Shown here in pieces: positions 133 through 49,273 of a DNA stretch of 64,000 nucleotides. A program made the translations under genes and the position numbers. The notes beneath the pieces are model-generated. The model made no database searches and was not told the DNA's origin. It worked only from the letters and a program-made list of their open reading frames with translations. Position 1 is the first letter of the stretch. Each line of letters opens with the position of its first letter. Source of the stretch: Balanoglossus misakiensis (Eukaryota > Animalia > Hemichordata). Location: assembly GCA_040954595.2 (NCBI GenBank), contig CM082589.2, forward strand, positions 6,011,186-6,075,185, given 5' to 3'.

Positions 133-520
133 GAACTGGAAGCCGAGAACAGTCTACGGCCAGCTGAATATCACTTCACTGAGGCTGGTGATTGGAAGGC
201 AGCTGTCAATATGTACCGTGCACACGACATGTGGGATGAATCGTACAGAGTAAGTCCACCATTTTGTAGTGCTTGTGGTGTGATATTGCACAGTGTGTTT
301 GCACGTGACACTCTATCCTGCTTATTACTGTGTCATCAGATGGTTGTCCAATGATTCAGATACCCGCACAGAGCAGAAAAAAATCAAATGAATAAATTGT
401 CAGCTCACTTTATACCTACTGGTATATTTAGATCCCACTTGCTATGTGTATATCTACCATTAGGAACTTAAGGGATTAGTTGTGTCTGTCTGTCTGTCTG
501 TCTGTCTGTGTGTGTGTATG

Positions 521-551
<31 letters not shown>

Positions 552-12238: not shown

Positions 12239-15200
12239 CTATACATCCTTTCTAACTTTCTTCTTTCTCTTCTGTGGTTTGGCTTCTATCCAATCATCTG
12301 AAAGATCAAGAAAAAAGATGGTTACCTATTTCACTGACATGTAGTTTGAAGGTTGAAAGCCATCTTGTATGTTACCTTCAGGTATTATTCAAAACTGTGC
12401 CATTCTTATTCTGTTATTACTTTTCATCCCACAAGTTCAACACCACCAATTTCACTTTTACCAACAAGTGGTTTGTCAGTCAAGGAAAATCACGTTAATT
12501 TCACAGCATGTTAATAATACAAAATCTATAACATTTTACAGATAATTAAGAAAATAATGCAAACATTGAAAAGTTTCGCATCAATTTCAAACTAAATCAA
12601 TGACGCTGAGGGCTTAACTTGGAATTCTGTGCGAAAGAGCACCCTCTTGATTTCACTGACCTTCTTCTGGAGCTGCCTGTGATTGGTCGTCATCTTTCGA
12701 CACACTCTCCGTCACTTTCTCTTCTGATATGTTTTCTGCCTCTTTAGCATCTTTGGTTTCCGTGGTTACGGCACTCACAGGTTCCTCAACTGTGATTTAA
12801 AAGAGTAGGCAGTCAAACAAACAGAAAAGAGCAAACAACTTTCAAGAATTAATGGGATAACCTTGGCCCAAGTCGTGACAAACGCTCAATTACAGACCCT
12901 CATCATAATCAGCTGATTTATGCTACATTTACCAATTAATCCTTAATGTTTGACAGTTGAATAAACACAGAAGTTACAAGACAACTTGAGTAGGAATCAG
13001 CAGAGAAGTAGTAAAATATCACAAAATCAAACAAACTGAGACAGTTAGACGTTAAGATGTTATAAAGGAAATGATCACAGTTGAATCAGTACTTAATTGG
13101 ATGTATTCAAGACATGCACTAGTTAGCAAATAAAAAAAGTCTCAAAAATGAATTCTCACCTTTTGAGTCTGTGGTTTCTTCTGTTTCTTTAGACTTAGCA
13201 CTCGGCACCTCCTTTTTGGGACTGCTAGGGGGCTTCTTCTTGGGACTTGATTTGGCCTTTTTCTCCGGGCTAGGTGGGCTTGGTGGTGCCCTCACAGGGC
13301 TGGCTGGTTTTGTTTCTTTCTTGGGCGATGCCTTTGTCTTTTTTGGTGAGCCTGTAGTCTTCACGTCTTTCTTTTCTTCTGTAGGAGCATCTTCTTTTTT
13401 ATCGTCGGCCAGTTTCTCATCTTTGGCGTCTGCCTTCACATCCTTGACTTCTTCCTTTTTGGCATCCTGTAAGCAATGATAAATTTACGCTCATTAGCAA
13501 ATTAGCAAGTCTGAGCATCTTCAGGATTTGAAAAAAAAATCTGCATCTTCTTGTGCATTTGTATAGAGAATATTTTCTATTTATTTTGAAGTAAAAATTA
13601 AAACAAATTTAAAATGTGAACAACAGAACCATGGGGAAAATATTCTCAATACTGTATTATGGTTTGGCTTGAAAAGATTTCACCTCAGAGCGTGTAGTTT
13701 TTGGATTTATAAACTCTGATAATAAACACACTTGCCTTCTTTTTCTTGCTTTTGGATGGCGACTCCTTGGGTTCAGCAACCTCACTTTCAGGCTGGGCGT
13801 CTTTCTTCACATCAGCAACTGGTACTTCAATTTCTTTAGTCACCTCTTCTTCCTGCAGAACAGGAACAATGGTTTTGTGAGACTTTAACCCTTTCACCAC
13901 TATGGTTCAGTCCAAACCCATTGTTTTCTATGGTAAGGTTGGACTGCTAAACAGGGAACTGGGGGTGAAAGGGTCAATGTCTGGCTCATGCAGATCTTAG
14001 AAAATGAAATGAAATTTCAGTCATTTTTCTTTTGCCCACTGCAGTAAATTTTAACTGTTTTCGGCCAGGATTATCACCATTCTGCCCTTTCTTTAACCTT
14101 TCCACCTCACTTCACTTTATAGGTATGGACCAAGCCCTGACGATAAAAGGGTTAAGGCCTTTCTCTCACAATTCTTTTCTACCTCCTCCTCCTGACCACC
14201 CCTCCCCTCCCATCTCTGTCACAACACACGTCCATCTCTCTTCCTCTCCCTCCCCTATCTGACCTCCTTTTCCCTACTATACAACTATCCATCAGTCTTC
14301 TCAAATGCAAACAATATCTCCTCGTCTCTGAAATCTTACCTTCACGTCTTTCTTAGCCTTCTTCTCCCGCTTCTTCTTGGGCGACTTGTTCTCCTCCATG
14401 GACACATCCACATTCTCCTTGTCCTCCTCATCAGCTTCCTTCTTCACCACTTTCTTCACAGTCTCCTCCGTCACCGTTTCCTCCTTGCTGATCTCTCGGT
14501 TCCTCTCGCTCACGGGTTTGGGAGATGATTTAGGAGGCGCTCTCTCAAACACCTTCTTCTCCTCCACGCTGATCTTTCTGGCTGCCTCCTCTTCCTCCTT
14601 CTGTTGCTGACGACTTAATTTCTTCTCTTTGCGCGTCATTGGGGTTATCCACTCCCCTGTCAAAAATTTAAAAAAATAATCCATTCATTGTTTCTCGAGA
14701 TCACCTGATAACATATTGTTTGTTTTTATAGACTTTCGCAAACAAGACCATATTGTGGTGAGATGTACATGATCACTTTACAGAAATGCCATCCTCTTGT
14801 TTCATGACCCCTATGTGACCTTTACATCCTGGCATTTTGTTGGTGTGATTTCACCATGTTGAGTTTTTAAACTCTGGAACAGTCAATCATATAATTGAAT
14901 TTGTGCACCATAACTCACCCTACATCAAGACCATATTTCATGACCCCTATGTGACCTTTACATCCTGGCATTTTGTTGGTGTGATTTCACCATGTTGAGT
15001 TTTTAAACTCTGGAACAGTCAATCATATAATTGAATTTGTGCACCATAACTCACCCTACATCAGGAAATTGATTTTTTTATGTTACAAAAAAGATTGAAT
15101 ATTGCAAACAATACTGAATGATGTATGATGTCATACCAACAAAACATCAGGATGTAAGGTCACTCAGGGGTCATGAAAATGGCCTACTGGGAGCTAATAT

Positions 15201-16398
15201 TCAGTAACTCAGCTAGTCGACTCATCAGTACTCTGCTATGCACGGAAATGTATATACACTAGACACAACCACGTAAGAAAATACACGAGTGACTACACTT
15301 TAGAAAGATTTGTACAAGTTCTCTTCTAAATTTGAACGATTCCTTTACATTTCTAAACTTGCAAAATTAATGAGTACCAGCATTATAAACAAGGCACACG
15401 CACATACAAGATGAATAATATGACGAAAAGCAGAATCCTAATTAGTAATTATACAACACTCATGAACATGTTTTTGATTTTTGAATCTTTAACAACGTCA
15501 ATAATTTAACCAATTACTGTCGGATGTGGTATTTTTTCATGATACATCAATTTTTTAAAATCCCCTCAATGGAAAATGACAATCATTAATGATGTGATAT
15601 CATCAATAATCAACTAAACGCAGCAATGAGAGCGATAAATTGCCTGAGATTGTTTCGTATTCAGGACACGTGTGGCACAAACGGTAATGATATTTTATGT
15701 AAGTAGTGGTTGCTAAGCAAACAGTCTTTACCAAAATGTCAAATGTCACATTTCCTGTTTTTTTTTTTTCAAAATAAACATCCGTGCTGAAAGATAGGAT
15801 AGTTTCAAACCAAAATACAACAATCTATTTTTTTAACCCTTTCACCCCCATTTCCTTTTAAAGAGGTCCAACCTCACCATGGGAAACAGTGGGTTTGGAC
15901 TGAACCACGGTGGTGAAAGGGTTATATTGACAAGTGTGGTAACTTTTCACCGTTAATTTAAGTTTTAAACCAGACTGTACCTTCGTCTTCTGCAGAGGGC
16001 GCTTCCTCAGTGGAGGACTGTTTGACTTTCTGCGGTGACTTGGGTCCCTGTCGTTGGGGAGACGCGGTTTGTTGAGGGACCGTCTCCTGCATCACTTTCT
16101 TCTTTTTCTCTTCGTCCACGCTCTTCTTCTTCTCCTTGCCGACCTGTTTCTTGCTCCTGTCCTTCGGGGACGACTGCGGAGATGAGTCCTCGGCCCTCTC
16201 CTTGTCCCGGGAGGTCGGCGACGGCGACGGCTTTCGCTTGCCGTTCTCTTCGGAGCTGATGTCGCCGTTGCTCAGGGGCTTCTGGTCCTTTTCTCGCTGT
16301 CAAGAGAAGCACAATTTAAATACAATTTAGTATAGTTGGCACCTCTAGAGATTAAATTCAAAATTTTAATTGATAGTACAAGAATCGTATGGTGGTAG

Positions 16399-16455
<57 letters not shown>

Positions 16456-19400
16456 CGACGACGACAATGGCGACAATGATGATGATTATAAACGACAATG
16501 ATGACGACGATGTTGGCAACTATGAAATAAAAAATGGTAGCCATAGCCCCTAACACTATGAGACAGTCTGGCTACAATATGGCAGTATAAGCAGGGACTG
16601 AACAAACAAGAGAAATGTGGCAAATATCAGAACGTTGACGTTTGGCACCCACGCTTTGTACAACGACTAAATAAACTCTCAACAAGTGGTTTCCCTATTG
16701 AATTCAATCCAATCTCAGCTATAAAGCCTTTTCAAAGCAGACGACTGGCACCTTACCATGTATACATTTCAATTGATGTAATGATCTACAGTTTTTATCA
16801 GGCAACGGTTTTCGAAGCCACGAGGGACTAATCAGCAATTTGTATTCTAAATGCCGACTGAGACGTCTGACTTCACTGCTGAATGACTTCTGCATTGGTT
16901 GGGGTTGTACGACTGTCGCCCCGAGTGATATGAGGTGACTGCAGTAGACACACACAGCCCACTTGCATATATGCATGCACCAACGCTGTTCCACCACAGG
17001 CTGTATTTCACAACCATGTAATCTTATTAGCTTAAGTGGAAATCACATCCCAACAATCTTTTTACATCACCTACTTAGTTTCTCAGGTGATGATCGACGA
17101 TAGCTGTTGTTGAATAGTCTTTGGATATTAGACTGTGACTTACAAGTTGCATGCTGTACACAATCGTCCCGGGAAGAAGCTATTTCAAGTCTAGACATAC
17201 ATGTATGCGATTATATTGACAGGAAATTTACTTTTGGAAGAGGCTGTCTAATCATATAACACAAACAAGACTACATCCAAAGTTAGACGTACATGATTGT
17301 CCTTGGAAGTGGTACCCTTCTGTGAGAGAAAAATGTCGTGGGAAGAGGCTACTAGCCTTGCATGGTAGTAATCCTACTGCCCTGCCCCTGGAAAGGGTGT
17401 GTAACCGGTAGAATCTCGAAGGTCTTCTCATAGATTACATTCAACTGCTCTGCACATGTTCAGAGATTGGGTTGACAGAGAAATCAATCTATCGTAATAC
17501 GAGGCCACTGCTGGTCACAAAGCAGTTAGACCCTTGCCAACCAGGCAAGCTTAGAAACAGCCACCACTATTGCCCCGGGTAGAAACCTGTTGCCTTCAAA
17601 ATCATGCAGATATTAATTGGATTGGGAAGCCTGACTACTTCCCTTGAAAACTAAGCACACATCCCTGGGAAGAAACTGCACTTTTGCAAGCTTAGACAAC
17701 AATTGCCCTCGGAAGAGGTTGCTACCCTAGAAAGTCGAGACCGCTACCCTGGGAAACCCTGGGAAGAGACAGCTTAATTCCGTAATACTTCCCAAGAAAG
17801 AGAAACTGTAGGAAAGACAGTACTCCATGATTGTCATGAGGAAACAGTCACACAGTATTACTGCTAGATACTCTATGTGTACAGTCGAATCTCTCAAAGT
17901 AAATTCATCATACGACAGATTTTAACTCAGGAATCTTTTATGCCCAACTAGTGTGCACAGTATACATGTACAGTTTGTGAGAGTGACAGCGATACATGTT
18001 ATTCTTAAAATAATTTGCATTCACTGTGATAAAATTGATTTGTGATTTGTTCCAGGATCATGACATTAATTAATTCACCTCTGCTGTGAGTGCTCGGCTG
18101 CTGTGAATTGTAAAAGCCTCTTAGTTTATGGGATTCAATTCAACTATAATTTTGATAAATATCTGTCATGGGAACACCCCCGGTTCCCAATAGCGTGATC
18201 TGTCAGACAATCATGAAATATTTAATGGGACCGCTGCATTTCCAGCAAATAGGCAAGGAGGCTCAATGCGCACGAGATAAATCAGAATCATTTGAAGTGA
18301 ATTTTTTCTCTGTTGAATTTTGAAAACCACCTGCTACTGAAGGAAGATGCAGCCTTTAACATTGGTCCAGACTGCCTGGGAATCTACCCTCCCTTGTTTG
18401 AACAGAAGACAGCCCCCGCAGTATTTAGCTGCTCTAGTTTCATCCACCACAGCAAACAGGAACAAGGGTTAATGCATGTATCTCTGAAACACCCACTTAC
18501 GGTTAATAATCCCTGCAGACTAATAGAGCTACTAAAAGTCTACTTCCAAGTTCCAGGCAGACGACCAAATAAAATGAATCATGGCAACTGATGACTCCAT
18601 GGTGATTTTTTTTTCTGTACTCTAGTATATATTACATGATTTTAATATCAAGCTTGAACTTGACAGGCATTGGTACCATTTGCATATTAGAACCACCTGA
18701 TTTTTGGTACTTTTAATACCAAATTGAGCAAGTCGGTATCAATTTTTCCTTGTGTTCGAAATCAAATCTAATCAGCAATTTCAGTTTGATAATCCAATCT
18801 ATTCCTGAAAACTACAGAGTAATCACACAGCACTTGGCACTGAATCTAATTTTGCCAGATCCTGTCAAAACGAGTACGTGTTTGAAAACCGGAACGCAAG
18901 TTGATGACTCATTCACGTTCACAGCACACTAACCTAGATTACACAGTCGTGAACCCGTCAACTTTTCACCTGTTGCCTGCGGTGGTTTTTGCCGTGCACG
19001 TACAGTGCCTGAGTGAAATAACGAGGTTTCAGTCCTCAAGTCACTCGTAATACAGCTTCGCAAGCAAATTTTTTGTGCTTCACACACATTTTGAAATGCT
19101 AGCCCAACATATAGTGCCTTAAGTATACATGTATGTCAGCCAATGCATGTCCCAGGTAATAATTCATAGGAAACTGCACTGATGTAAAATTCACTGTCTC
19201 AGACAGAACTGCACAATGACAGACAGATTTTGTCGTAAATCGATCGATAAATCACAGCAACAGATGAATAAACTACTGAATTAACGTCACACTCAACACA
19301 TCCATTTATTAATGCTTTTAATATTTCATGCGGCCGATTGAGTATAATCCTCTCCCCGCGCAGCTGCCTGTCTGAGCCGGGCTAAATCTGTGTGACACTG

Positions 19401-22400
19401 TCAACAGCGCAGGGGTCATTTGAGGACGCAGAGTTCAAAGGTCACTGAACTGTTCGGGAGCGGTGGTTTGTTGGTTGACTCAGGTGTCAGGGATCATACA
19501 TATACCAAGACATATTACAAATACTGGAAATTTGACCAGTCCACTCCATAAACGCACAAGCGCGAGCAAAAGCAAGTGCATAGATGACGTCATGAATGGT
19601 CAAAATGTCATGGTACATCATTACCCGGGGGTGGTTTATTGCTTACATGCTGAACAGCAAACAGGATTTCTATGGATAACAATAAAACCAATTTAGAACA
19701 GTCAGCAATGCACACCTACACACAGGCACTGTGCTTGAGTAACCTGCCAGACCTTTAGAATTAAAGCAGTTATCATACGAACGACTCCTTGCACACATCA
19801 AGAAATGATGAAGCCATATAAAGTATATAATGCGCTTCTGGGGATAGATTTTCAGAAAAATGGTAGTTCCCAACTTTAGTATTCTTTTCTATATTAAAGT
19901 ATGTGAGGATTCTTTTCGAAAACAAAGAAAGAAATTTGGTTACTTTTCTCCATAGAGTTGACACACAGATAGATTTGGCGGCCATTTTGAATTTCAAATT
20001 TGTTGAGCTATATACAAGACTACAGCCCATCTGTGGATAAAGCAACATGGCCTTCTTGATAAATTATAGACATTTTTAAAGAATTGAGTTTAAAATGTCA
20101 TTTTAGCACTTACATGTAGTTGCCATTTACATCTCTCTTTTTAACACAGAATTTATTTTACGCACGGAATTAAAAATTCAACAAGAAACTTGTTTCAAGC
20201 CTGATTTCCCACTTTCCTTCCAGTCTGCCTCAACCAATCCACTTTGATGACGCACATTTTGAGTCTTAAAATGCCATGGAGTGCAAAACGTGGCTGAAAC
20301 AAAATGTCAATGCAAACATTGATGTGCTCACGGTGCAATTGATGACATTTCAAAAACTTGCCTCTGACAAGTAACATTCAAAATATCTTCAATCTTGCCT
20401 GAAACCTTATGGCATTTGCCTGATTTTGCTTCAATTAGGCTCCACTTTGCAATAGTTTCACGTTTTTATGGCGCCTAAAATTGGGTAATGCGTTGCCAAA
20501 TCAATTACAGTCTATGGATCATTAACCCTTTCACCCCCAGTTGCCTCTATAGAGGTCCAAATTTACCATATAAAAACAATGGATTTGGACCAAACCATAG
20601 TGGTAAAAGGGTTAAACTTTCTCTGACAGTATGCTGCCACGCACTAGATAACAAATTTTACAATTTACACTCTGGTAAGAATTGAAGATTTGTGAAAATG
20701 TTTGATTCCACATGTACTAGGAAACTGGTCTGTTACTCTAAAGGGTTCATCACACCATAAAATTATCTGAAAGTTCTATTAAAAACAATGCATGTAAAAC
20801 CTCAGATGCATGTTATAAATACACACACGATTCTTACACAACAGTGATGCACCATATGGCCCTTGAATAGACGATGTCCTGTACAATTGCTCATCTGAAA
20901 GATTTGACGATTGACAAAAGAAGTACAATATTCTACGAGAAAAAATGCCAAACTGGTTGATTATAAGCACTGTGGTACACAAACACACACAAGTCTCAGT
21001 TAACACTCCGCAGGTAATTTTAATACTAGTAACAAGCCCTTCCATATGGAATGTTTTATGCAAACATATAAGTACAATACTGCAAAATAGGTCAGGCATG
21101 TACTGCAACGTGTCAAAGAAATATTGGTCTCATAACATGTGACAAAACTTTCAAAATACAGAAATAGAACATGTACAATCTCACATCATTTAAGTTTGTA
21201 ACATGCTGAGTCTGGGCCTTGTTACTATTTGCAGACATGGCTACACCTGTTACCATGGCGCATGTACTATTTTCTTTCAGAGATCGATCAACTGGAAAGA
21301 TTATGGCTGCCGTGGTTTTAATAATTCAGCGACAATAAAAATATTGTAGACACAAAGAATGAGTGTTATCGTAAAAACACTGTGGTGGGCGTTATAAACT
21401 TAGACTGCATGGGACGTTCCAGTGTCCACAGAAATTCAATACACTGGTACGTCCAACCTTTGTAAACGCAGAGCCAAACAGATGTTGCTCGACATGAATA
21501 TACGCAATGTTACACATAAAGGGTGCAGTCAAAAGTACATGGTGGTACACAAAGAGTAATTTCTCTGCCCTTTAGGTCATGTGACATTGAAAAGGTCCAT
21601 CCGCAACTGCTGATCAACGGTATGCAAATTTGTCCTCGGCGGCGGTGTATTGTATGCCAATGCATTGAGTACCCCGGGTGTGTTTAGCATATAAATTTAT
21701 ATATACAAATGTATGCCAAGAGTCTACTGTACAGTGTCATGTTATTGTGAAAAGTCCATCCTGTCTCTCCCCCCCCCCTCCCTCTTTTGCCATGATGGTT
21801 CCAACCATATCCTGGAAAACAATATGGCTGAATGAAGTTCTGGTAATGAAAGGGGTTGTTCGTAATCTCTGAAACTGACAACATCAATGGTACAAACTGC
21901 TCATTTACCTATGTTTTCCACAGAAATCTAACTACTGATCGACTTGTCGGCTAATGAAAACGACTTAAACATGGGCCTTAAAAATGGAGTTGACTATTTT
22001 AATCTTAGAAAGCAATCAAACGAGTGGGATGTTGTGTGTGCTTTTAATACCAGAGGTAAATCAGTCCAACTTTGTCCGCCCACACACCACACACCAAATA
22101 GTTTCACAAATAAGCATTTTCTCTCGATACAACAAATGCGGTTATTCCACTTTCAAAAGACATGTATCTGAAGATCACAGTACAGATATTTGAAAATGTA
22201 AGCTTTTGGAAGCATTTCTATGAAAAATTTAGCAATATTTGCTGTAAAGGAATGCGTTTTGACGAATCAGATTAATATCAGATAAAGAGATGCCTAGGTC
22301 TTTACATTTTTTTGCTGTTTCTGTTCTTCACTTCTACAATCCTCACCATATCCGAAAAACAGAGCAGCAACAAAGCGGCAAATAAAAAGATTGAGCTAAC

Positions 22401-25400
22401 CCTACATATGATTTTAATTCTCCTTTCATGCAAGTGAAACCAGTTTGTACATGTAATGACAACACATTACCTAGGCCTACAACACAAAACATATCATCCA
22501 CACCAAATTACTATTCCTGAGCTGCTAACCTCCATTGATTTTTCAAAGCCTGGCCTCTCAATTCTCATTGATTTCTTCTTTTTCTGTTTCCATAAATGGA
22601 CACGTTCTGGACAGGCATCTTTCAGACACCTTGGCTTACAAGTTATAGTTCTCACCTCACATCAATCTACATGATGATGTTTACTGGCTTACACATTATG
22701 ATGTGTCCACCAGCACCTAATTCCACTGCTTGGTACATTGCCAAAAAACCCCACTAAATTTACATGCTTTAACCCAACTAAAACACTGTCAGCTGAATGA
22801 ACATAATTAACACTCCTAGCCAATCAAAGTAATATTATCAACACTTGCAGCCAATGAAATTTAATCAAACATGCAAGCATACACAAACAAAAATGTTGAA
22901 TATGTTGGTACGTGTGGTGTGAAAAATCGGTCAACAGGCCACCAACCTATACATCAATCCACATAAAAAAACAAGCTTCTGTCATATCACATTAAAATTG
23001 GCTTCTCACCAACTATTAAACAAAATAAAAAAACTATTTCAAACTCTTCCAGGGGTCAAAGGTGAAAGGTCACAACCTTACACAATATTATATTGTATGC
23101 TAATGGCGAAGTAGTGTGTTTACAGCTTGACATATCATATCAGTATAAGACCTTGTCAGGTTTTTACAAAATGAAAAGCATCTGATTTCTTGTGAATGGA
23201 TTTCGTTCCTTAGAATTACTGCACAAAGATAACAAAGTCTGATTCGGGGCTATCCAATACTTGTAAACAAATGATGTACGTTGATACGACACATTGTAAG
23301 TACTTCAGAGGGGTGCGTGCCACCATTACATAGCAACATAAAGGCAGCTACATGAACCTAAAGGAAGTTCAACTGAACCAGGTTTATACGATTAGATCTG
23401 GCAACACGGAAAGAGACGGTCACGAAACGACCACGCTTGCAGTAAATGTTTGCAAATTGCCGCTGCAAAAAAATATCTAGCTAGAAAAGCGTCATTATGC
23501 TTAGTGACGGAATTACCTGAAAGTTTATGTGATACCACAGAATTGCTGTTTAGCCTTGCCTGTTCGAGTGAACATTGAGAGACGAGATATACCGAAGAGA
23601 AACATGACACAGCTGGCAGTGTTTCATCCTATTCAATAGATCTTCGAAAAGCCAGGGAACACGTCAACCTTGGACAGAATTTGACACCCACCAAGCACAA
23701 GGCCTGAATTGAAGTTGTGGATGAAAGTTTCATCAACGATTTGCTGTACGTCTTACAATCTATCATGGAACCCACAGCCAAAAACAAGCTCTCGTCACCA
23801 ATGATAATTATTGCACCACCAATTTAGAGTCCAGAAATTTTGGTAGAATAATAACACATCTTACTAAAAAACATAAGGGAACCAATCAAAAGAAAAAAAA
23901 CATGAAAAAGTCATTCTAGATAACTATATTTAGTCGACTATATTTTTGACATGTTTTACTCAATGAAAAAGGTCATTCAATTAGCGATCCTACGTCATAC
24001 ACACCATTTGCGTAAGTGACAGTGGCTGCAGTGGTACATAAAAATAGCAAAAATAAAAGCTTGTGATTTATTAGGTTTCCACCTGAACTGGCTCAACAAT
24101 TTATTTTTATCATTTTTAAGTTGTTTTGGTGTGACAATTTTCAGCACATATCGGCAGCCCAAAATTGTGAATTTTCAATATGAAGAAGAGTCGTTGTGAG
24201 CTACCAATAGCCATTTTTGTCTAAGCGTGATAAAAAAGATCCTGTGCATTGTATGCAGATGCAATAACGAAACATATAATATAATGGGTTTTTTTCCAAA
24301 TGTAATCTAACATGATACTGATAACACATCCCATAACATGCCACAAGGTGGTAAACCTCTTTCCAGAAGTCAGCTGCTGCAAAAAAATCCTTTTACCTCA
24401 CTTTAATCTTGGCAAAAATCCCTATGGCGATGTTACCGTGGAAACAGCCTTCTTGTAACCATGGGAACAAACTCGTTTACGACAAGCCATGCTTTGACGG
24501 AAGCGAACCGTGCTTTGTGGAATGCCGAGACTCTAAAGATACCACAGATTGAGGGTTTGGGGAACGTACACAGCAATCTCTGCACTGACTGAAAATAAAC
24601 TACGGTAAGTGGAGCTACCTACGGGCATGAACTGCTCTAACCAAACAACAGATATTCAAGAAAAACAAAACATCTCCAAAACATTTCAGTACTTTAAAGT
24701 GTGTGAGAAGCAGGAACTGGCCAGTAATCAATTTAGCAGAACTTTGCGAGCTGATATTTATTGGCCTTTAATACAAGGCTGCTCCTGATTGGCTGACTAC
24801 ATTTTCTCACCTACATGCACTCTTATCTCACATTAGCCTGTACAATGCACAGTTTCGCCAATTTTAGCATCACACTACAGGGATGAAGAAAACAGCAGGC
24901 AGCCAGCAAAAACACCCGGCTGATGGCAAAAACCCTAATGGCTGTGCATTGAGGAATATTTCCTTTTATGAGAATTCAGGGACATCTGCACAAATGTATA
25001 TATCCCCACTTGTAACTGGCAATACTTTTATTTTTTGTCGCCGGTGACGAACATTTTCAACATCCCTACATTGCTACACTACATGGTGAAAGTAAGTTGT
25101 GCTTACATCTGCAGCTTCCATATCTTCTGCTAATAGTTTCTGATTGACACCACACATGTTAGGTACTTTGTCTTTGCATCTGTGGTGAATATTCGCATTG
25201 CAAACTGGAAATGAAGAGTACCATGCCATTCATAATATATTCATAATTTCAGCTCTCTTTAAAGGACCATTAGCTGTAACTTTTGGCTTTATTTTCAGGA
25301 TTTTTGTTGTGTATAAAATGCAATATCTACTCCAAACAGCATGCTGATATACCCAATACTCAAGTTTTCAACATAGCCTGTATGTGTGTAATGGCCATTG

Positions 25401-28400
25401 TTATTGTTGACAAATAAATTCTAGTCTGGACTTGAATTCAAATTTTGCACAATAACAATGCTGACTATACACACATATGTTGTGTTGATAAAGCTAAATG
25501 CTGAGCATTTCATCCTGTACTGAAACTGCAGTAGATACACAAAACAAAAAGTGAAGACATAGCAAAAAGTTACAGCTAATGGAGCTATACATTTGATATC
25601 AATATTATATTAACACGTTGCCCATGAAAAGATTATACAAAGAGCATGAATTTATAGACACAACTGGAAATTGAACAATTGCTAGATTGATATTTTTGGC
25701 AATGTACAAATCAGTTTTAATGATGTACTGATTGTTTTCCACTCAGTGTAAAGATCTCAAGCGTTTTCAGCCATGAATTCAGAGTAAGGCAAGGTTTGTA
25801 CACGTGGGGACTATCTATACAAGGGTGGCTTGAAATCAGCAAGAGTGGAGAGTGTGTCGATGTTGGCGACGTACCTTCACACTTCAGTCCCTGCCTAATT
25901 ATTCCAAACAGCATGCTACCACAATGATCACAGAAAGTCGGAATCTTATACGAGTACACCTTGAAACGGTGGGGTACATCAATCTTGAGTCTCTAAGATC
26001 AAAAAATCACATAAAAGTGTAAAACCGAAGATTGCCACAATGATTAAAGGGGGAGTGTCATCTGATCTGCACATGTGCGACTTAATAAAAACACACCATC
26101 AGCATTCCCCCCCCCCCCCCCCTGTTTAGGGAGACCCTACCATCCAATACATGTTATAACTTGGAAATGTGATAAAGAGTAAGGATGCATTGTCTGGCAT
26201 GATATAAATTTTCCACATCAAACAAAAGTGACCAAATTGTGAATATATATAGGTTATCAAAGACGTCATGATAGTTGTTCTGATAACAAGGCAGACATAC
26301 CTAAACTAAAAGCTGAGACTGCAGCCTTGATATTACTTAGTAATTGAGTTTATTGTACCACCTAGCATACTTGCACAATCATCTCCTCAAATAACATTGT
26401 TGACTTTATCAAATTTCTTCTCAAAATTTCAACTGCTTTATTTGCATGTTTTTGCAATTCGATGCAAATTTCATCCAGTGGATTTCGATTTGCGACAAAT
26501 CATTTTCTTATCACAAGACACACAGCGATACCTCGCCCTGTCTATCCCATGGGAACAACACAGATGTGCCTGTAACAGGTGAACTAGGTGAAGATATGAA
26601 GATATGTAACGCATGTTATGAACAATCTGGCAGAGGTCAAATGTCAGGATGATAAGAGACCGAATATGATAAATGCAGATGCACGCCAAGCCTATACTCT
26701 TAGGTAAAACAGAGCAAATTTTTTTTTTACAGTCACCCCCTCCCCCCCCCCCCCCAACAGGCTCCAAGTGTGAATGATCCACACAGTTCACAAAGCCACA
26801 TCTCGCATGTCACAAATAAGGACAGGAGCATATGGAATAAAGGTACATTCTATGTATCACACTAATAATTCACAAAATCCCCCATAAAATTTTCGACTAC
26901 GGATCAAGGCACATTAATCATCCTGTTTCATATCCTGGATATAGAGACAGGTCAATACTTAAAGGTGTCAAACAAAAGAACAGTCAACATTACTTTATTT
27001 TATTTTCCCCCAAACCTTCCAATCTTCTTTACAGAGGTCTCTCGGAATCATTCTGGACAGACAGACAGACAGACACTGTCAAGGTTGAAGGAATACAATC
27101 ACCTCTAATTTACATCTTCCCATTTATGGAAAATAGGACATGTCTGGCGGCGCACTTTGTTCACGAAGCCACACAGGTAAAAATCTGTCGATAGGTGGAT
27201 CTCCATTTCCATGGTAACTGTGGTTAAATAGGTATATGTGACCGAGGATACCTTTAATTAATTAAACCTGCAGCCTTTTACCCATCAATGATTCCAGTTG
27301 ATTCTTCAGAAAGGCCACAAGGTCAAGAAGCTATCTCTCTCATTCACACTACATGATTTTATGACCCCCTTCAAAGGTTATATTCAGACATTGTCCCTCT
27401 GTGATTCAGACAAGTTTTTTTTAATTTTTACTCTCTTGATGAAGTCTCAAAACAGGTGGTTGCCAAAAATAGTAACCCAGCTACAAGATTGAAAGTTGTG
27501 GGGGGGGGGGGGGGGGAATGCAACCCACAACACTATCTTTGCTGATAGACAGTTTACACACTGAGACCAAGGAAAACAGGACTCACCTTACAAGGCCACA
27601 CCTATCTCAAAAGTTTACAATATTTGATAATCAAATATAGAAAGCCCTAGCACTTGAGTAAATCATTAACCACATGTGTTTAATTACATTAGACACTCCA
27701 GACCTTTACTGTGAATGCACTTCCAAGTCTTGGGCTTTGCTAGATCAACACCACCACCATCATGTGCCCCTGTTCCAAAAGGTCAAAGGTCACACAAGAC
27801 CATTGATCTCATTTCTGAACTCTCACTGATTGGTGTTTGACTTAATAATACTTAACATTACAGCTTAATTAGAGGAAACACTGGAAATTCATTATCATAA
27901 TATCCTGTTAAATATAATTCCTGCATGTCATCAGAATTATTTTGATCATGATTCACAAACTATAGTGCCATAAATTTGATATCAATTTCAGAAATAAAAT
28001 CCAAACAAAACTATCATTATGCATTAATACACATCATGATGATGGTATGAGTATTTCCAAAACTGTTATCAGTAGCAACAAACTGTGAGTCACAGTTTAA
28101 ATCATCTTTTTTTCTACTGTCAAATGAAATGAAAACGGTTAAAATTAATTAAAAGTTACAGCTGCACGTTCAACACAAAACTCAATTTTGGGAAAAAATA
28201 TTGCCAACTTTGCTCAGAAAATATGCTACCATATGGTAAAAATTAAACGGTTTCAAAAAACTACATGGACAATAAAAAGGGCCAATATTTGTGTCGTCTT
28301 TATATAAATATACGGGTAAATCTTGTAACAATGTGATTTTGGCTGACCTCATTTGGTTGTTTGTTCAACTACTTCCACAAGTCTGGGTCACGCTGCATGT

Positions 28401-29243
28401 AGCTGCGTGACACTAAATTTTATTGCCGAGTAGTGGGGGAGTAAACTTCAGCGGTCAGTTTTGAAATGGACAAATTAAACCGCATGTTCATTTCCTGAGC
28501 GCAAGGAGTTCAAAAGCGGGTTGCAAATGGACGAGTATTTCAGTATTCACAGACCGTCCGGCACCGTCAGACTATTTTAAAGCAGAGAAACCTGTAGAAT
28601 GGTTTTCTGTCTCTGCGCGATGCGCGATCGATCGTGGCCTGGTCGCGGTCGGTGCCAACTCCTACCATCCATGTGATGTGCACCGTTCATATACAAGGTC
28701 GAGAACAGGGCAGATATTAATTTATTTTCCACTGACTACATATTCCACGGCGTTTGTGATTGCCTTCGCAAAGGGGCGTTTCAAAAGCAAAAGGGATAGC
28801 TAAACATCATGTACACAAATGCAGGCATGCACTGATGCAGACGAAACACATGAATGAATGGGGGCGATCACTGTGACTGGGAATCAGCTGGCAGACTGCT
28901 TACGTGGACACACAGCGGACGCGTGAGTTTTTCGCCAAATCAAACGATCGCTGACTGTGATCGCCGCTAGTTTTCACACACATCGGAAGGGTACCGTGTA
29001 GGCTACGCGCCAACGCTGCAATTTTGTCGCTAGATCCCCGGGCGACGGGGAATGCACAGAAAATCTGTTAAAGATACTCACACGAGCTCGGCGCCTCCTG
29101 CTCTTCTTGTCGTCACCATCGAAGTCGAAGGACGGGGGAGGACTCGTCGACTTGAAGCCGAAGACGAAGACGAGACCAACCAAGACGATGACGCTCACGA
29201 CGGGCAGCGAAAACTGCAGCGTGGCGATGTCTTTCGTCTCCAT
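12239..29243 (-). CDS. MTDH: Metadherin/LYRIC (AEG-1)-like single-pass membrane protein with a long K/E/S/P-rich tail; 468 aa, or 540 aa with the C1 cassette
   Basis: Exons 29243-29082, 16296-15981, 14656-14340, 13852-13736 (GC donor), 13466-13160, 12789-12661, 12297-12239 join in frame (1407 nt). N-terminal [20 protein letters not shown] then basic [25 protein letters not shown] resembles LYRIC DEGAWETKISHREKR, and the end [17 protein letters not shown] resembles LYRIC WESPKQIKKKKKARRET*. The exon structure is solid; orthology is less certain because most of the protein is low complexity. Confidence 0.75.
13885..13977. mobile_element. About 90-bp MITE, copy 1 (TTAA-CCCTTTCACC ... GGTGAAAGGG)
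   Basis: Terminal inverted repeats; internal sequence shared with copies at 15833-15925 and 20522-20615. Confidence 0.75.
14800..15180. mobile_element. MITE-like element with about 45-bp inverted ends and a 136-bp tandem duplication of its left part
   Basis: TTTCATGACCCCTATGTGACCTTTACATCCTG starts near 14800 and again near 14936; the reverse-complement copy CAGGATGTAAGGTCACTCAGGGGTCATGAAAA lies at about 15148-15179. Confidence 0.7.
15833..15925. mobile_element. About 90-bp MITE, copy 2 (opposite orientation to copy 1)
   Basis: TTAACCCTTTCACC...GGTGAAAGGGTTA; internal GGGTTTGGACTGAACCA is the reverse complement of copy 1. Confidence 0.75.
16399..16510. repeat. (GAT)n microsatellite decaying into GAC/GAT variants
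   Basis: About 18 perfect GAT units followed by degenerate units; intronic. Confidence 0.95.
20522..20615. mobile_element. About 90-bp MITE, copy 3, TTAA at both ends
   Basis: TTAACCCTTTCACC...GGTAAAAGGGTTAA with the same internal core. Confidence 0.75.
25107..25992 (-). CDS. Two exons encoding a novel-PKC (delta/theta-type) C1B zinc finger; probable in-frame cassette of the metadherin-like gene
   Basis: Exon 25992-25875 (ttag|AGA...GAA G|gtacgt, 118 nt) plus exon 25204-25107 (ccag|TT TGC...GAT|gtaagc, 98 nt) give [72 protein letters not shown], with the full H-x12-C-x2-C-x13-C-x2-C-x4-H-x2-C-x7-C pattern. Confidence 0.88.
25259..25585. mobile_element. About 320-bp MITE-like element in the intron between the two C1 exons
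   Basis: CCATTAGCTGTAACTTTT at about 25267 and its exact reverse complement AAAAGTTACAGCTAATGG at about 25565-25582. Confidence 0.65.
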
Positions 29244-29569
29244 ATGGGAAGGATAAAATCTGTCGATTCTGTTTCGAATGCGGAAATCGGGCCGAGAGGA
29301 GTGGACACAGCCAAGCGTCAAGTTGCTACACACGGTAGTTGCAATATGGAAGCAACACGGGTGACGTCACTACCTAATTAGTTATTAACTGTGTACGTCA
29401 CAGAGATGCTCACACAAAACTCCAAACGTCGTAAATAGCACGAAGTCTGTATAGCGACTTCCGTGACCAATTTTATGTGCAATAGTAAGATTTCAGTCTA
29501 CGGAATTTAATGACCATAACAAACGCGCCTACTCGGTCTAAAAATAACACAAAGACGTCACATTCGGCT

Positions 29570-29584
29570 CCGCTAGAGGGCAGT
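29570..29584 (+). promoter_or_regulatory. CTCF-like site upstream of the metadherin-like promoter
   Basis: CCGCTAGAGGGCAG fits the CTCF core consensus; a CRE palindrome GTGACGTCAC lies at 29360-29369. Confidence 0.45.
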
Positions 29585-30081
29585 CTAAATACACGAGTAT
29601 GCATGCAGTAAATACTGCCTCTGCAAAATTACACTGCAAAGCCCGAAAATACAAAACGGTACGACCGTGTTTGTTTGTATAACCAAAAGAATTTGAGGGT
29701 ATTCAACGACGTAGGCCTAGTCGAAATCTTGTCGACAGACTTGTCATGGCTTGGTCAAATATTACCAGTTAAATATATAAGTTTTATTTTGCCATCAACA
29801 ACAAACACATATCTACATTCAATACCATTCCTCGTGGTCGAAATTTGCCACAGATGATTTATAGGATATATGCCTATATTACCAGAACCTGAAATCTGCA
29901 CGGAGACCAGGCTTTTATGAAAACAAGTCGGTGAACACCAAGTTTTCTTATTTGTTTTTAAAAAAGACTTTTCACACACTATAATATAGCAAAGAGCTCA
30001 AAGGCTTTTGGACTATCACTTTTGAATATACTAGTATGTCCAATACACAAGGCAATTATTAGTTTCCACAGAGCTACAGAC

Positions 30082-32185
30082 TTAGTGTCGTTCTTCACTT
30101 GTATTCTGTGCACTTTGAGATATGTCCCACTCAAGACTTCTAGCAAAACCATATATATCGTTAATTGGACGGCAGTTTATCTTCCAAGAATGGGGAATCA
30201 CAGAATTGAGATCATGAATAAAATCACGAAGTTGCAATCCATTGTAATTTGAGATTGCAGAAAGTTTTGGCGTTTCAACGTCCTCGATTTGTCTTCCAGA
30301 CTGTTTGGCACTGTGCTGAAGGAAGTCTGCCCGCAGATACCTGAAGAAGTCCGGAAGAATATTAATATATTCACATCGGGTGGCAGGTAATGAATAATAG
30401 GCATCGTTTCCAAAAATGGGAACGCCTGTATCGTGCATCACACCAATGAAAAAATCTCTAAAACTTTCGGGCGCATAGTCAATGTCTGTCTCTACAAACC
30501 TCCCCGAGTTTAATAATTCTGTAATGATAACTGCTTTGGGATTGATCTCGTTCAGATAAGGTTTGAAGAAATCGAGAATGGCTGGTATCCCGTAATAGTC
30601 GGCCAGATTGGAGGTGGATATACGATCAAACTTTGTCCGCAGTGGGTCGATCATGGTGTCCAGTTTGAAACAATCGCCGAGTAACAGATGACATGACATA
30701 GCACCACTTCTCAGCTTCAGGGAGAACTTCTCAATGGTGTTGGTAAGGTAATCGCAGTACATGCTTTGCAGTGAGGGGACATCGGAGAAGGCCTTAACGT
30801 CGAGGTAATCCCATCCCAAAAAGGGGAAATGGTCAGCGACGGTGTAAATCATGGATGCCCTCTCCATACAGTATGGAAGAACCCACAATCCTTGGTGATG
30901 TGCTGGTAATACAAAGCCTGGGTCGAGCATTGAGTTCCTACGGAGCAAGGTTACATTTTGAAACACTGCTCTTGACTTTTGAGGACTTGAACTTGGCAGC
31001 ATTACACCTTCTTCTGCAAATTCTTTAAGTGACTCGCGATGTTGTTCAGGGATGCGCCTATAGTATTTTTCACACACTGATTTTTGATGAGATTCAGCTG
31101 CCATCCACGCCTGTCGCTGTCGAATGATGTCGGCATCGGACCCCCTTTTAAGAGATAGATCCAACCACTCTTTCCATACTGATTTCAAAGACGTCAAAAT
31201 GTCTTCAGAAATGACTAATTGGTGCCCTGTCTTTGTCAGAAGACTCTCGCTGTCGTGGCCGATGAGCTCACTAAGGTATCTTTCAAGTTCCTCAACCTGT
31301 TCAATCGTTATGGACACAGAATACCACAGTTGGACTATCGTTTGTGCTGCAGTCGACGTGTCATCAGATCTCTGTAACCAGTACAGGAAAAGGGCATTTT
31401 TCGCCATGATGTAATGATTACTATCGTTGAGGTAGAAGTCAACGTGTCCCTTGAATTCATCGTCAAGCGATGCGCCTGTTTTGATGACGTATCTGAGATC
31501 CCCAACACCGGCTAGCAACAGGGACAACTTTTCGGGCCTGAGTCCAGAACGCCATTCGTTTTGTCTCAGCTTCAGCAGGTCGATAGCTGGAGTGTTGCCC
31601 CAGAAATGGGTGGTACAAGTACGATCCATGTCCCCTTTATATCTTCTGTAAAACATCGTCTCGGGTCGGAGAGTTGACGCGATTTTTACAATCTTACTCC
31701 GAACTTTCAAACAGTCGGGTTTGTGGCGTTTCCAGTGTTTGCTCTGACATGCCCGCCCACAGTACCACACTTCCAGGCAAGCAGAACACTGCTTAGCAGT
31801 CGACGTAGTCTTGCAGCAGCAACTGCACTTTCTACTTTTCACGGCATTATTGCACTCTACCTGCAGACATGTAAAGAGGACAAGATCGCGCTATAAGAGG
31901 GGTTCAACAACACGTATGAGTAGGGCAAATCAAGGCTAGTCGCAACCACAACATTTTGTTCACAAAGAACGCCAATCATTTACACGCAGATCTGTCGTTC
32001 GCTAATTCCCTGCTTGCACTGTGTCTAACAATTGAAAACACACTTCGTATCGATAACCTCACCTGATGTCTGAACTTGTCATCCTTTAAACACTTCCGAC
32101 TGCAGTAGAGTCCAAAATTACAACGAGCACACCTGATTCGTCCATATTTACCGCAACGCCAACAAGCACCAATTGCAGAGTCCAT
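30082..32185 (-). CDS. Double MYND-type zinc finger + DUF4470-like (DNAAF3-related, methyltransferase-like fold) protein, copy A, 633 aa
   Basis: Exon 32185-32063 (MDSAIGACWRCGKYGRIRCARCNFGLYCSRKCLKDDKFRHQ) joins exon 31860-30082 at phase 0. Second finger CSACLEVWYCGRACQSKHWKRHKPDC; family motifs FWGNTPAIDLL, LLLAGVGDLRYVIKT, FDRISTSNLADY. Confidence 0.85.
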
Positions 32186-34401
32186 ATCTTGTGTTTGCTA
32201 CGGGGAGAGAAAAGAATTAAATGTACAAACCAGTGCATGGTAGTAGTTTGCGTCCAGCATGGTTTTACCTAGTAAGTGTACAGAGAATGGTTATCTAAAC
32301 AGAGTCTTGTGACGACATTGCAACTGTGCCCTTGCTAACAGCAAAGCACTCAACTTGAAATTCAAAGACGGAGAAATTTAGAGTAAATACTGAAGTAACA
32401 AGTTATGCGGTTAGAATCACAGATGTACTAAGGGTTTACACTGCTGCCAACAGGATTTCACGGGACTGGTGGAGTAACTGTACGTATCACCGCTTACTTG
32501 ATGCTCAATGATCGGACTATATGATTTCCGTGAACGGGCAGTACAGGTGTGGTTGTAACCTTGCTCACCCACACAATGTGTATGACTGAATTATCTTTAG
32601 TCTTACTGTATTTAAGTGTTCTGATACACAATGCAATTGATTGGTACCTGACGCCACCATGTTCCTGGTTCAACTTTGTGTTCGCGGAATCAGTAGAGAT
32701 AATCGCAAATGCACAGTTGCTGGAATATGCGACTGTTTTCTTTCTCTTTCTCTTCACATCGACCGGGTTATAGCAGAAACACCTGCGTGTCATCACAGAT
32801 ACTTTTCGACTGATTTGGTCTTTTAGCCATTCTTCACTGTTTCGTCGTATCTTGTTTTTCTTGTCTTTTTAGACTATGTTTAATGAATTTGTGAACCAAT
32901 ACAGCTGACATGAGACGAGCAATACTAAGAATCAACATGCAATTTGTTTAAATCGTGCACGATGGCAAACAATACTGAGAATTCGTACAGGGTGGACTTT
33001 GATTGGTTTCCGTATAATATCAGCTGATCCCACCTAACATGTACATGACGTCAGACAATGGATTCTTTTCGGACTCGTGAGGGTGTGAAAGTCCACTGAG
33101 AGGTCGAAAATTTCTTGTCGTTATCCCGTACCGTATACAGGGTATGCTTTGAGTTATATAGCAACCGGCCTTTGGCAAATAATACCAATAAGAATAACAC
33201 GATGAACAATCCATCAAAAGAAACAGAAATAACCAAAGTGTCCAAAGTGGGCATTTTCCCTTTAAAGCTCACATGCATCTAAACGAACATTTCCCGGTAA
33301 CCCCTTGTTCGTTCTTGTGTACTGGATCAAAGATAAATTTTGACCTCCACATTCGCCAGGCACCGACAATTGGACATTCGCACCCTCCTCAAAATCCATT
33401 GTCTGACGTCATATACATATCAGGCGGGTCAGCTGATATTATACGGAAACCAATCAAAACCCGACTTGCACGAATTTTTTCGTCACCTTGCACGAATTAA
33501 ACAAATTGCGTTTGTTCTGAATATATAAGCCGTCTCATGCCAGCTGTACTGATTGACAAATTCGTCAAACACGTAACACAAACAAAACAAAAATGCAAAT
33601 TCTCGCGAACCAGAACGCAGTAGCTGTTGTCGTAAAGAGCCCAGTGGTTAACGGCGATGATACCAAGCAACGAAACAACAAAGCGTGACAAAGGCCAAAT
33701 TGTTCATTACCTGGTCGATGTAAAGAGAAAGAGAAAGAAAACAGTCGCATATTCCAGAAACTGTGCATTTGCGATTATCTCCACTGATTCCGCGAACACA
33801 AAGTTGAACCAGGAACATGGTGGCGTCAGGTACCAATCAATTGCATTGTGTATCAGAACACTTAAATACAGTAAGACTAAAGATAATTCAGTCATACACA
33901 TTGTGTGGGTGAGCAAGGTTACAACCACACCTGTACTGCCCGTTCACGGAAATCGTTCAGTCCGATCATTGAGCATCAAGTAAGCGGTATACGTACAGTT
34001 ACTCCACCAGTCCCGTGAACATCTGTTGACAACAGTGAAAACCCTCGGTACGTACAGCAAGTATATCTGACTCTAACCACAGTCGCGTGGGGGTGCATGG
34101 GTGGGCTATACACTGCGATATCACGCCTGGCTTATTTCGGAGTCATAGGCGCGATCGCAGTGTGACAACACCTACGTGACTGTGACTTTATACTACGTCA
34201 TATCTTTTAAGCACAGTATTTACTCTAAATTTCTCCGTCATTGACAAACGGCAGAATTCGAGTGCCGTTTGCAATTATATCATCAACAGACTCTGTTTAA
34301 ATATCATTCTTTGTAGGAAAGCCATTCTGGACGCAAAACTGTCACATGGTTTGTACATTTAATTTAATTTATTTTCTCTCCCCGTAGCAAACACAAGATA
34401 T

Positions 34402-36679
34402 ATGGATTCTGCAATTGGTGCTTGTTGGCGTTGCGGTAAATATGGACGAATCAGATGTGCTCGTTGTAATTTTGGACTCTACTGCAGCCGGAAGTGTTTA
34501 AACGATGACAAATTTAGACACCAGGTGAGATTAACCCTTTATTTGATCAACGGGAAAGAAAGTAATCTCGCTAAATAAAATGCTAGGCCGCTCGAAATTT
34601 TATCATGGAATTGAAATATGTTTATCCTGCCTCTTCAAACGAAAAATAAGAAGATAGTTCATCTGTTCTCGTGGTTTTCGCGGAGTCGTAAAACTTCTCG
34701 CCTACGGCTCGAAGTTGCGCGGCTCCGCGAAAACCACTCGTATACGATGACGTCAAACAAAGAAAAATATCATGGGATTATATATAAATATAATATCTCC
34801 TCAAGAAATATACGGTACCCAAATCTCCTTTGTAGCCACCAGCTCATGCAATAAGCTTACATCCTTTCCGTTTCTGCAGGTAGAATGCAGTAACGCAAAG
34901 AACAAGCGACCGTGCGATGCCTGTGGCGTGCTTTCGTCCACTGCTAAGCTGAAGCAGTGTTCTGCCTGTCTGGAAGTGTGGTACTGTGGGCGGGCATGCC
35001 AGAGAAAACACTGGAAACACCACAAACCCGACTGTTTGAAAGTTCGGAGTAAGATTGTTAAAATCGCGTCAACCCTCCAACCCGGACAGACGCATGCCAG
35101 AAGAGATAAAGATGAATTGTGTTTATATAAAGGTCAAGCCACCTTCTTCTGGGGCAACACAATGGCTGTGGACCTACTGAAGATGAAACAAAACGAGTTG
35201 AGTGTTGGAATCAGTTCCGAAAAATTGTCCCTATTGCTAGCCGGTGTTGGGGATCTCAGATACGTCATCAGAACGGGTGCATCGCTTGAAGACGACTTCA
35301 CGGGGCGCGTTGACTTTTATCTTAACGATAGAAACGACTACATCATGGCGAAACATGCCCTTTTCCTGTACTGGTTACTGAGATCTGATGACACGTCGAG
35401 TGCAGCACAAACGATAGTCCAACTGTGGTATTCTGTGTCCGTAACGATTGAACAGGTTGAGGAACTTGAAAGATACCTTAGCGAGCTCATCGGCCTCGAC
35501 AGCGAGAGTCTTCTGACAAAGACAGGGCACCAATTAGTCATTCCTGAAGACAATTTGACGTCTTTGAAATCAGTTTGGGAAGAGTGGTTGGAGCTATCTC
35601 TCAGAAGGGAACCGAAAACCAACATCATGCGGCAGAGGCAGGCATCTATGGCACTCGATACTGTTCAAGCCTTGTACGTTGAACAGTGCTACTCCCGTCT
35701 ACCTGAACACCACCGTGAATCGTTTCTGCAATTTGTAGAGGAGGGCGTGATGCTGCCAAGTTCAAGTTCTCAAAAGTCAAGAGCGGTCTTCCAAAATGCA
35801 ACGTTGTTCCGCAGGAACCCTTTGCTCGACGACGGCGGTTTCCCGCTTCCGTCACACCAGAGAAGTTTCTATAAGTGTCTCCCCAGTTGGATGCAGGCAG
35901 AGAGTATGGTTTACGTCGCTATGGATCATTTGCCCTTTAGGGGATGGGATTACCTCGACGTTAAGGCCTTCTCCGATGTCCCTTCACTGCAAAGCATGTA
36001 CTGCGATTACCTTACCAACACCATTGAGAAGTTCTCCCTGAAGCTGAGAAGTGGTGCTATGTCATGTCATCTGTTACTCGGCGATTGTTTCAAACTCGAC
36101 ACCATGATCGACCCACAGCGGACAAAGTTTGATCGCATATCCACCTCCAATCTGGCCGACTATTATGGGATACCAGCCATTCTCGATTTCTTCAAACCTT
36201 ACCTGAACGAGACCAATCCCAAAGCAGCTATAATCACTGAATTACTTAATTGGGTGTACCCTGCCGAAGTGAATAACGATTTCGCGGGCATTAACATAAC
36301 GGACGTGGTAACTGATGATATGGGCGTTTCTGTTGACGATGAAACAGCTCACAAGTCACCCGTCATCCTGGAGGAACACATCAACGTCCTTCCAAATTTC
36401 CTCAGGTTTCTGCGGGCCGATTTCCATCAGTACCTCGCCAAGCGTGCCGGCAAAGAAGTCAAAGACGTCGAAATACCATCCTTCTCTACAATTTCACGGT
36501 ACAATGGGTTGAAACTTCGCGATTTTATCCACGACCTCAACTCCATCATTCCCCATTGCTGGAAGATAAGTTGTCGAGTTGATACCGTATTTCCTTTAGC
36601 CAGAAATCTGGAATGGGGCCTAGATCAAGATGCGACGAATCCACCCCAAATGGGCATGAAACCATTCACGTCCCAATGA
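34402..36679 (+). CDS. Double MYND-type zinc finger + DUF4470-like protein, copy B, 640 aa
   Basis: Exon 34402-34524 joins exon 34880-36679 at phase 0 (ctgcag|GTA GAA TGC); same motifs and intron position as copy A. Confidence 0.85.
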
Positions 36680-48756: not shown

Positions 48757-49273
48757 TGTTGCCTCAGTGGGTGTGAGTTCTTTACAAACCTGGCTTGCAA
48801 ATTTTCTCGCCACTTCAAAGCAACGATTGCTTTCGCTTTCGACTGCAGCAGTCGTCTAATTTCCTATCCGCCATCTTGCTCATTTACCGCATGATGGCGC
48901 TACACCTTGCTTTAGCGCCACGTGTGGTGAAAACTCGCTTAGCTGTAGTGCTGTGCATGATGGGGGCCTGTTCTCGTCAAAATTATTTTTTTTATTAATT
49001 TAATGTGTTAGAATTAATTCAACTAGTATCTCGAATAATATGTTTCTTTGAATAAATGTTTATTTGATTTGATTACTTTTGAGTAGTCATGCCGAATTAA
49101 TTTTGTGTTCTAATTCATTATTTTAGCCCAGCCTATCTTTACTGGAGTTAATTTTATGTAGTTAAGAATTTATTTTGTCTTCTTTTTCAATTAATTTTGT
49201 TTTCAAACTATTTTCACGTGCTGCAAGTAAATTTTATGAAAAAAATAATAATTTTTCGCGAATTAATTTTGGC

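Follow-up and report, generated by a model that had tools for sequence, protein, structure and literature searches.

A minus-strand gene of seven exons, running from position 29243 to 12239 and encoding a predicted protein of 468 amino acids (aa), was recognized within a stretch of 64,000 nucleotides (nt) from the acorn worm Balanoglossus misakiensis (contig CM082589.2), hereafter referred to as the window. Within the first intron of this gene, termed the host gene, two further exons, A and B, are located on the host strand, and together they encode a complete C1B domain of the type known from novel protein kinases C (PKC). The proposal that this pair represents a lineage-restricted C1 cassette, gained by exon shuffling and predicted to be spliced in frame into host transcripts, is given an even chance, as judged from the sequence. 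The features of the locus are, in the order of transcription:

29082..29243, minus strand: host exon 1, with the ATG, a hydrophobic transmembrane (TM) segment at about residues 11-30 and a basic cluster, ending in phase 0
25992-25875, minus strand: cassette exon A, 118 nt, phase 0 to 1, acceptor ...TTAG, donor GTACGT
25205..25874, minus strand: inner phase-1 intron of the cassette, 670 nt, at a position conserved in novel PKC genes
25204-25107, minus strand: cassette exon B, 98 nt, phase 1 to 0, acceptor ...CCAG, donor GTAAGC
25027..25106, minus strand: read-through of exon B, 10 codons, with TAG at 25076-25074 and AATAAA at 25032-25027; weakly indicated, possible use as a terminal exon
15981..16296, minus strand: host exon 2, starting in phase 0
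14340..14656, minus strand: host exon 3, with a conserved Trp motif
13736..13852, minus strand: host exon 4, with a GC donor at 13736 as deduced from frame and alignment
13160..13466, minus strand: host exon 5
12661..12789, minus strand: host exon 6
12239..12297, minus strand: host exon 7 up to the stop codon, with a Trp and basic C-terminal motif

Exons A and B comprise 72 stop-free codons. The former contributes seven residues and then the first 32 residues of C1B, the latter the remainder of the domain followed by a delta-type tail. Two same-strand exons of 118 + 98 nt with canonical splice sites had been proposed in the original prediction, and their coordinates, AG/GT ends and phases (0-1-0) were reproduced. 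Both halves match the Pfam family C1_1, exon A with an E-value of 1.2e-9 (profile positions 1-32 of 53) and exon B with an E-value of 6e-4 (positions 34-52 of 53), and together they cover the profile. Numbered from the first histidine and read from the translation, all eight zinc ligands are present at C1 spacing (His1, Cys14, Cys17, Cys31, Cys34, His39, Cys42 and Cys50), as are Pro11, Gly23, Gln27, Gly28 and the aromatic Phe13, i.e., five of five positions that are strictly conserved in typical C1 domains; the ligands and the first three of these residues had already been listed in the prediction. The available part of PMC9110374 gives Pro241, Gly253, Gln257 and Gly258 as the strictly conserved C1 residues and describes a hydrophobic cage made up of Leu250, Trp252, Leu254 and Phe243. 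In these terms, the cassette retains Pro241, Gly253, Gln257, Gly258 and Phe243, and the other three cage positions (20, 22 and 24 of the cassette) are occupied by Met, Phe and Ile in place of the Leu, Trp and Leu of vertebrate PKC delta, i.e., by residues that are hydrophobic but not identical. At the toggle position, the comparison given in the same part of that paper is between Trp and Tyr and not Phe. Judged from its residues, the finger is predicted to bind phorbol and diacylglycerol (DAG), the latter probably with an affinity below that of a Trp-type C1B.

The match of exons A and B to the C1 domain of PKC is far beyond chance. For exon A, invertebrate novel PKCs were the best matches (identity up to 80%), and all 73 sampled candidates carry C1_1; no protein named as hemichordate was among these 73, and none of the 43 short candidates inspected starts like host exon 1. 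In the Protein Data Bank (PDB), exon B is nearest to the C1B domains of PKC theta and delta, and the top three rows for exon A are PKC beta, followed by theta and delta. Modelled by itself with AlphaFold, exon A gave no useful information (pLDDT 46.5). Exon B extended by its read-through brought up no candidate when used as a query, a weak test that also missed PKC-delta proteins with similar tails. A match to DUF4796_N (19 bits, cut-off 27) overlaps the Cys motif and was dismissed.

Further PKC exons were sought in the whole window. Using seven PKC/PKD proteins as tblastn queries, no PKC exon besides A and B was detected; likewise, a 684-position novel-PKC profile, built from 22 full-length PKCs and run over all six frames with stops read as X, matched exons A and B (iE 4e-23 and 1e-9) and elsewhere reached 0.1 at best. 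Among the 74 minus-strand open reading frames (ORFs) of at least 40 aa in host intron 1, Pfam scanning placed C1_1 in exons A and B only, and one other ORF gave a sub-threshold KH match (E 0.0085). The C2, C1A and kinase exons that a protein kinase C gene should have are thus absent from the 64-kb window, as had been claimed before.

Since host intron 1 is of phase 0, the 216-nt cassette unit fits in frame. Skipping it gives the predicted protein of 468 aa, including it one of 540 aa with no internal stop, so that the earlier claim of in-frame inclusion or skipping, with exon 1 ending and exon 2 beginning in phase 0, stands with both predicted frames open. The description of the cassette as optional was an assumption. 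Were only exon A or only exon B included, the frame would be lost and a stop reached after 189 or 78 codons, respectively. The arrangement corresponds to a symmetric shuffled exon unit with 0-0 phases, a phase-0 host intron and a retained inner intron of the donor gene. Exon shuffling is described as preferring symmetric phases and as frequent in lancelets in the available part of PMC4284660. When scored crudely, the four splice sites of the cassette fall among the best 10%, 0.2%, 3% and 2% of the 702 AG and 917 GT sites of the 12,785-nt intron 1, and those of the host among the best 0.1-7%. The GC content at third codon positions (GC3) is 0.49 and 0.34 in the cassette exons and 0.40-0.45 in host exons 4-7, and because of this likeness it is uninformative.

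The origin of the cassette was analyzed by means of 80 metagenome loci, of which 77 contained the search motif; these were collapsed to 47 distinct PKC rows. A phase-1 GT at the position of the cassette's inner intron was found in 40 of the 47 loci, the other seven continuing without an intron, which answers the earlier suggestion to look for a phase-1 intron after the KCE motif of PKC genes. The shared intron argues that the cassette was copied from genomic DNA; a retrocopy is ruled out by its retention. In one locus whose C1B resembles that of vertebrate PKC delta (L002), the second exon measures 101 nt and ends in a phase-0 donor, compared with 98 nt for cassette exon B, a shift of one codon; most other loci in which the second exon was visible showed no donor of this kind. 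Within the inner intron of the cassette, a decayed palindrome of 316 nt (25267-25582, 68% self-complementary) was also noticed, possibly an old fold-back element.

At the 5' end, the cassette departs from its presumed source. Each of the 40 loci with the intron shows an in-frame AG at a distance of 11-13 codons from His1 on its 5' side (31 of them at -11). The window has no AG at -11 to -13 and contains in-frame stops at -8 and -10, and the cassette acceptor lies at -7, a position occupied by GAG or CAG in 13 of the 47 loci. On this comparison, the acceptor of exon A is new, lies four codons inside the ancestral PKC exon and fits neither delta nor epsilon, and we infer that a cryptic AG turned acceptor after copying. 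The cassette had been presented as a PKC C1B exon pair; domain and inner intron agree with this, but the acceptor is not the ancestral one.

Regarding the PKC type, the cassette was placed at the base of the delta side in a tree of 84 rows (support 96/75), its end branch of 0.42 being the longest in that clade. A tree of 22 rows supported the delta grouping weakly (74) and did not reject an epsilon grouping (p-AU 0.2). Over the 50-residue core, the cassette is about equidistant from delta (28-36 identities) and epsilon rows (30-35). In the tail, seven to nine of nine residues are identical to delta rows versus three to six of nine to epsilon rows, and several loop residues are epsilon-like. 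The designation as delta-type is favoured by the C-terminal tail and the donor of exon B, but the trees do not settle between delta and epsilon. Taken together, a novel PKC gene, likely of the delta type, is the likely source from which the exons were copied as DNA. Among the loci, L021 (near 1727) has a natural novel-PKC C1B exon with a delta-like start and epsilon-like loop residues.

The pattern of conservation was evaluated next to the extent of divergence. From each of the 83 other C1 rows, the cassette differs at no fewer than 24 of 72 residues, and from the consensus of 11 delta representatives at 25, these representatives themselves differing at 5-19. Nevertheless, 27 of the 30 delta-invariant columns are kept and three changed, compared with 22 changes in the other 42 columns (Fisher p 1.7e-4). 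Of the 25 residues that depart from the delta consensus, 20 have counterparts in natural delta or epsilon C1B domains; of the five residues not seen there, four fall within the last six residues of the tail, and one tail residue that is invariant across 41 delta and epsilon rows is changed. The retention of the delta-invariant columns at such divergence favours selection on the cassette. Neutral evolution was simulated by random substitution (substitutions only) from six natural starting sequences, a sequence counting as intact when the frame was open and 12 key residues were kept; at 6, 10, 14, 18 and 22 amino-acid changes, with 9000 runs at each level, 21%, 6.6%, 2.0%, 0.6% and 0.2% of the runs were intact. 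A stricter criterion of 20 columns was dropped, the cassette itself keeping 19 of them. Third codon positions are 0.28-0.53 identical to those of distant PKCs and thus apparently saturated, for which reason dN/dS was not computed. Its new acceptor, its altered tail and the lack of adjoining PKC exons speak for a copy of some age, but are no proof that it is used.

The predicted host protein features a single N-terminal hydrophobic segment (hydropathy peak 2.6 at residues 11-30), followed by a remainder rich in Lys, Glu, Ser and Pro (94 Lys and 68 Glu among 468 residues in total). Host exon 1 had a sole match among 36 candidates, namely XP_077991352 (LOC144445613) of the enteropneust hemichordate Glandiceps talaboti, with 94% identity; at full length, 259 identities were counted in 496 aligned columns, with start, Trp motifs and C-terminus alike. 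A wider search yielded 59 relatives, 19 of which are at least 300 aa long, the others being mostly exon-1 fragments. This mostly unnamed invertebrate family shares a TM-FGF-K-S-PP-F start, an internal Trp motif and a Trp/basic C-terminus. Twenty relatives were looked up, and those named belong to an echinoderm, amphioxus, molluscs, a brachiopod, a nemertean, an annelid, a myriapod and a nematomorph; the name metadherin was on none of the 20.

The original prediction had called the host metadherin/LYRIC-like. Metadherin (AEG-1/LYRIC, PF15686) and RRBP1 (p180) share with the host a single N-terminal TM segment and a basic low-complexity tail, and this part of the label stands. Above the Pfam cut-off, there is no LYRIC match: one of 16 family members reached 29.7 bits (cut-off 30), and XP_077991352 gave no match. 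Furthermore, the Atlas ranked the RRBP1 cluster (0.88) higher than the LYRIC cluster (0.80), scores to be taken as leads only, and an Atlas search with host exon 1 returned nothing related. No PDB match was obtained with the host-family profile. The host would thus resemble MTDH/p180 in architecture, the LYRIC likeness of its sequence being weak, and the family is possibly an invertebrate counterpart of MTDH or RRBP1. The host introns also contain a near-perfect tandem duplication of 136 nt (14800-15063) and an interspersed repeat of about 95 nt (13884-13979, 15833-15924 and 20520-20616); an Rfam scan of positions 10000-30000 gave no match.

Based on the shared strand, the exact 0-0 fit and the presence of exactly the two exons of one whole C1 domain, the following course of events is proposed for the cassette. 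Two C1B exons would have been copied as DNA from a novel PKC gene, likely delta, into the phase-0 intron 1 of the host. The copy would then have lost its ancestral 5' acceptor, the AG four codons further in being taken up instead, and selection may have kept the C1 core as the PKC-specific tail drifted. In some transcripts, exons A and B would likely be spliced between host exons 1 and 2, giving a TM-C1-disordered-tail protein of 540 aa alongside the form of 468 aa.

Several observations weigh against this proposal. The annotated protein of Glandiceps talaboti (481 aa; a RefSeq protein in a single-member cluster, without isoform suffix) joins exon 1 directly to exon 2, without the C1 insert. 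Neither a C1 motif nor a C1 Pfam match was found in any of the 59 host-family matches, in which clustering at 50% hides isoforms. The acceptor of exon A is the weakest of the eight scored acceptors. Moreover, a divergent parent PKC would make the copy young and the pattern of selection that of the parent, and at six changes 21% of the neutral runs were intact. Finally, the cassette was picked for study because it is intact.

According to the first of the other explanations, which is considered unlikely, a piece of a PKC gene lies unused in the intron, intact because it is young, and is skipped in the mRNA or leads to its degradation. The relatives without C1 and the loss of the ancestral acceptor agree with such an orphan, as do the other local duplications in the window and the frequent exon rearrangement reported for lancelets, another marine deuterostome, in the part of PMC4284660 available. 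PKCs of the L021 type, in which delta and epsilon features are mixed, additionally make a divergent parent possible. An orphan, however, requires either that the copy broke off no more than about 12 nt from an in-frame AG fit for use, or that its flanks decayed and the exons did not. Furthermore, no remnant of C1A or kinase accompanies it, although the preceding exon of L002 ends only about 370 nt upstream, and its changes are concentrated in variable columns and the tail.

Use of the exons in another transcript of the locus is rated as rather improbable. They could either form a terminal unit of exon 1, A, B and a stop, encoding a TM-C1 protein of 136 aa, or follow an unseen first exon, C1 then replacing the TM segment. 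The 10 codons and stop in the read-through of exon B, with an AATAAA 42 nt further on, are compatible with the former, the 3 kb of intron upstream leave room for the latter, and selection on the C1 core would suit both equally. On the other side, AATAAA is found 13 times over the 12,785 nt of the intron, so that chance would place one within 100 nt in about 10% of cases, the donor of exon B is good (top 2%) and in phase with exon 2, and no alternative upstream exon was identified among the ORFs of intron 1. A real PKC gene with its remaining exons outside the window, or a misassembly into the contig, is very improbable: the best matches of the peptide are all PKC/PKD proteins or C1-only fragments, but the introns of such a gene would have to exceed 38 kb and 25 kb and to interleave with another gene on the same strand, and the acceptor kept in all 40 of the 40 loci with the intron is missing here, as is the tail residue common to the 41 delta and epsilon rows.

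Compared with the C1B domain of novel PKCs (PF00130; PDB 7KND/7L92, 2ENZ), the cassette has the zinc ligands, Pro11/Gly23/Gln27/Gly28 and Phe13 in common, as well as the hydrophobic beta34 loop, the inner phase-1 intron and the delta-type tail. It differs in lacking C2, C1A and kinase, in an exon A that is four codons shorter at its 5' end, in Phe22 at the Trp/Tyr toggle (found in 13 of 31 delta rows too), in Lys9 and in the altered end of the tail.

In the predicted longer protein, the finger would be located about 30 residues from the TM segment on the cytosolic side, an orientation expected from the basic residues that succeed the TM segment. The DAG it binds would lie in the same membrane, in an apposed one or at a contact site, and the binding would render the basic tail sensitive to lipid in its clustering or its contacts with membranes. 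AEG-1 is an RNA-binding protein of the endoplasmic reticulum (ER) whose cytoplasmic domain is almost wholly disordered, according to the part of PMC5900566 available, and this parallel suggests a comparable function for the host. It is tentatively proposed that the acorn-worm lineage captured a PKC finger as a splice-switchable module in an MTDH/p180-like ER protein, which may have brought ER-bound mRNA/ribosome handling or contacts under kinase-free control by DAG.

According to the original prediction, this architecture is not known to be described. The available part of PMC9692390 reports TM plus C1 for two human proteins, DGK-epsilon and PDZD8, which combine the N-terminal TM segment of an ER protein with C1, the C1 pair of DGK-epsilon following the TM segment. 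Unlike the window protein, both carry catalytic or SMP/PDZ domains in the account given there, and no link of either to the present host or to an exon pair derived from PKC was found, no test having been aimed at one. Since TM plus C1 is known from these proteins, as far as that source goes, only the pairing with the present host family would be new. A literature search, in which most subscription papers and all supplements were outside the scope, returned no paper pairing metadherin with a C1 domain. Exon shuffling is a familiar mechanism, and the novelty would lie in the architecture within the host family.

If the cassette is spliced, it represents a clean case of exon shuffling in which splice-site history and donor family are legible in the sequence; if not, an ordinary duplicated gene fragment. 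In the former case, a structured lipid sensor would have entered a family whose members found here have no C1, and isoforms with and without the cassette would form a natural pair for studying regulation of a basic membrane-anchored protein by DAG at the ER.

Elsewhere in the window, two divergent long ORFs at 30085-31890 (minus strand) and 34751-36676 (plus strand), both with zf-MYND and DUF4470, form an inverted duplicate with 78% DNA identity, and their flanks are duplicated too (32054-34533). The region 49274-51713 contains a tandem array of a 107-nt unit (7.5 copies at 50292-51090; related copies at 49538-49815), which is located between inverted repeats of 270 nt with 94% identity. ORFs without Pfam matches are located at 39441-40364 (plus strand), presumably OSER1, and at 47950-48855 (minus strand), presumably a macrodomain gene of the OARD1 type. 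At 57809-58837 (minus strand), a single-exon sulfotransferase ORF (Pfam Sulfotransfer_1) was found, which we take to be a heparan sulfate 3-O-sulfotransferase. Finally, exons of a TPR-repeat gene with a weak match to TPR_IFT122, presumably IFT172, occupy positions 1-5800 on the plus strand, convergent with the host gene.

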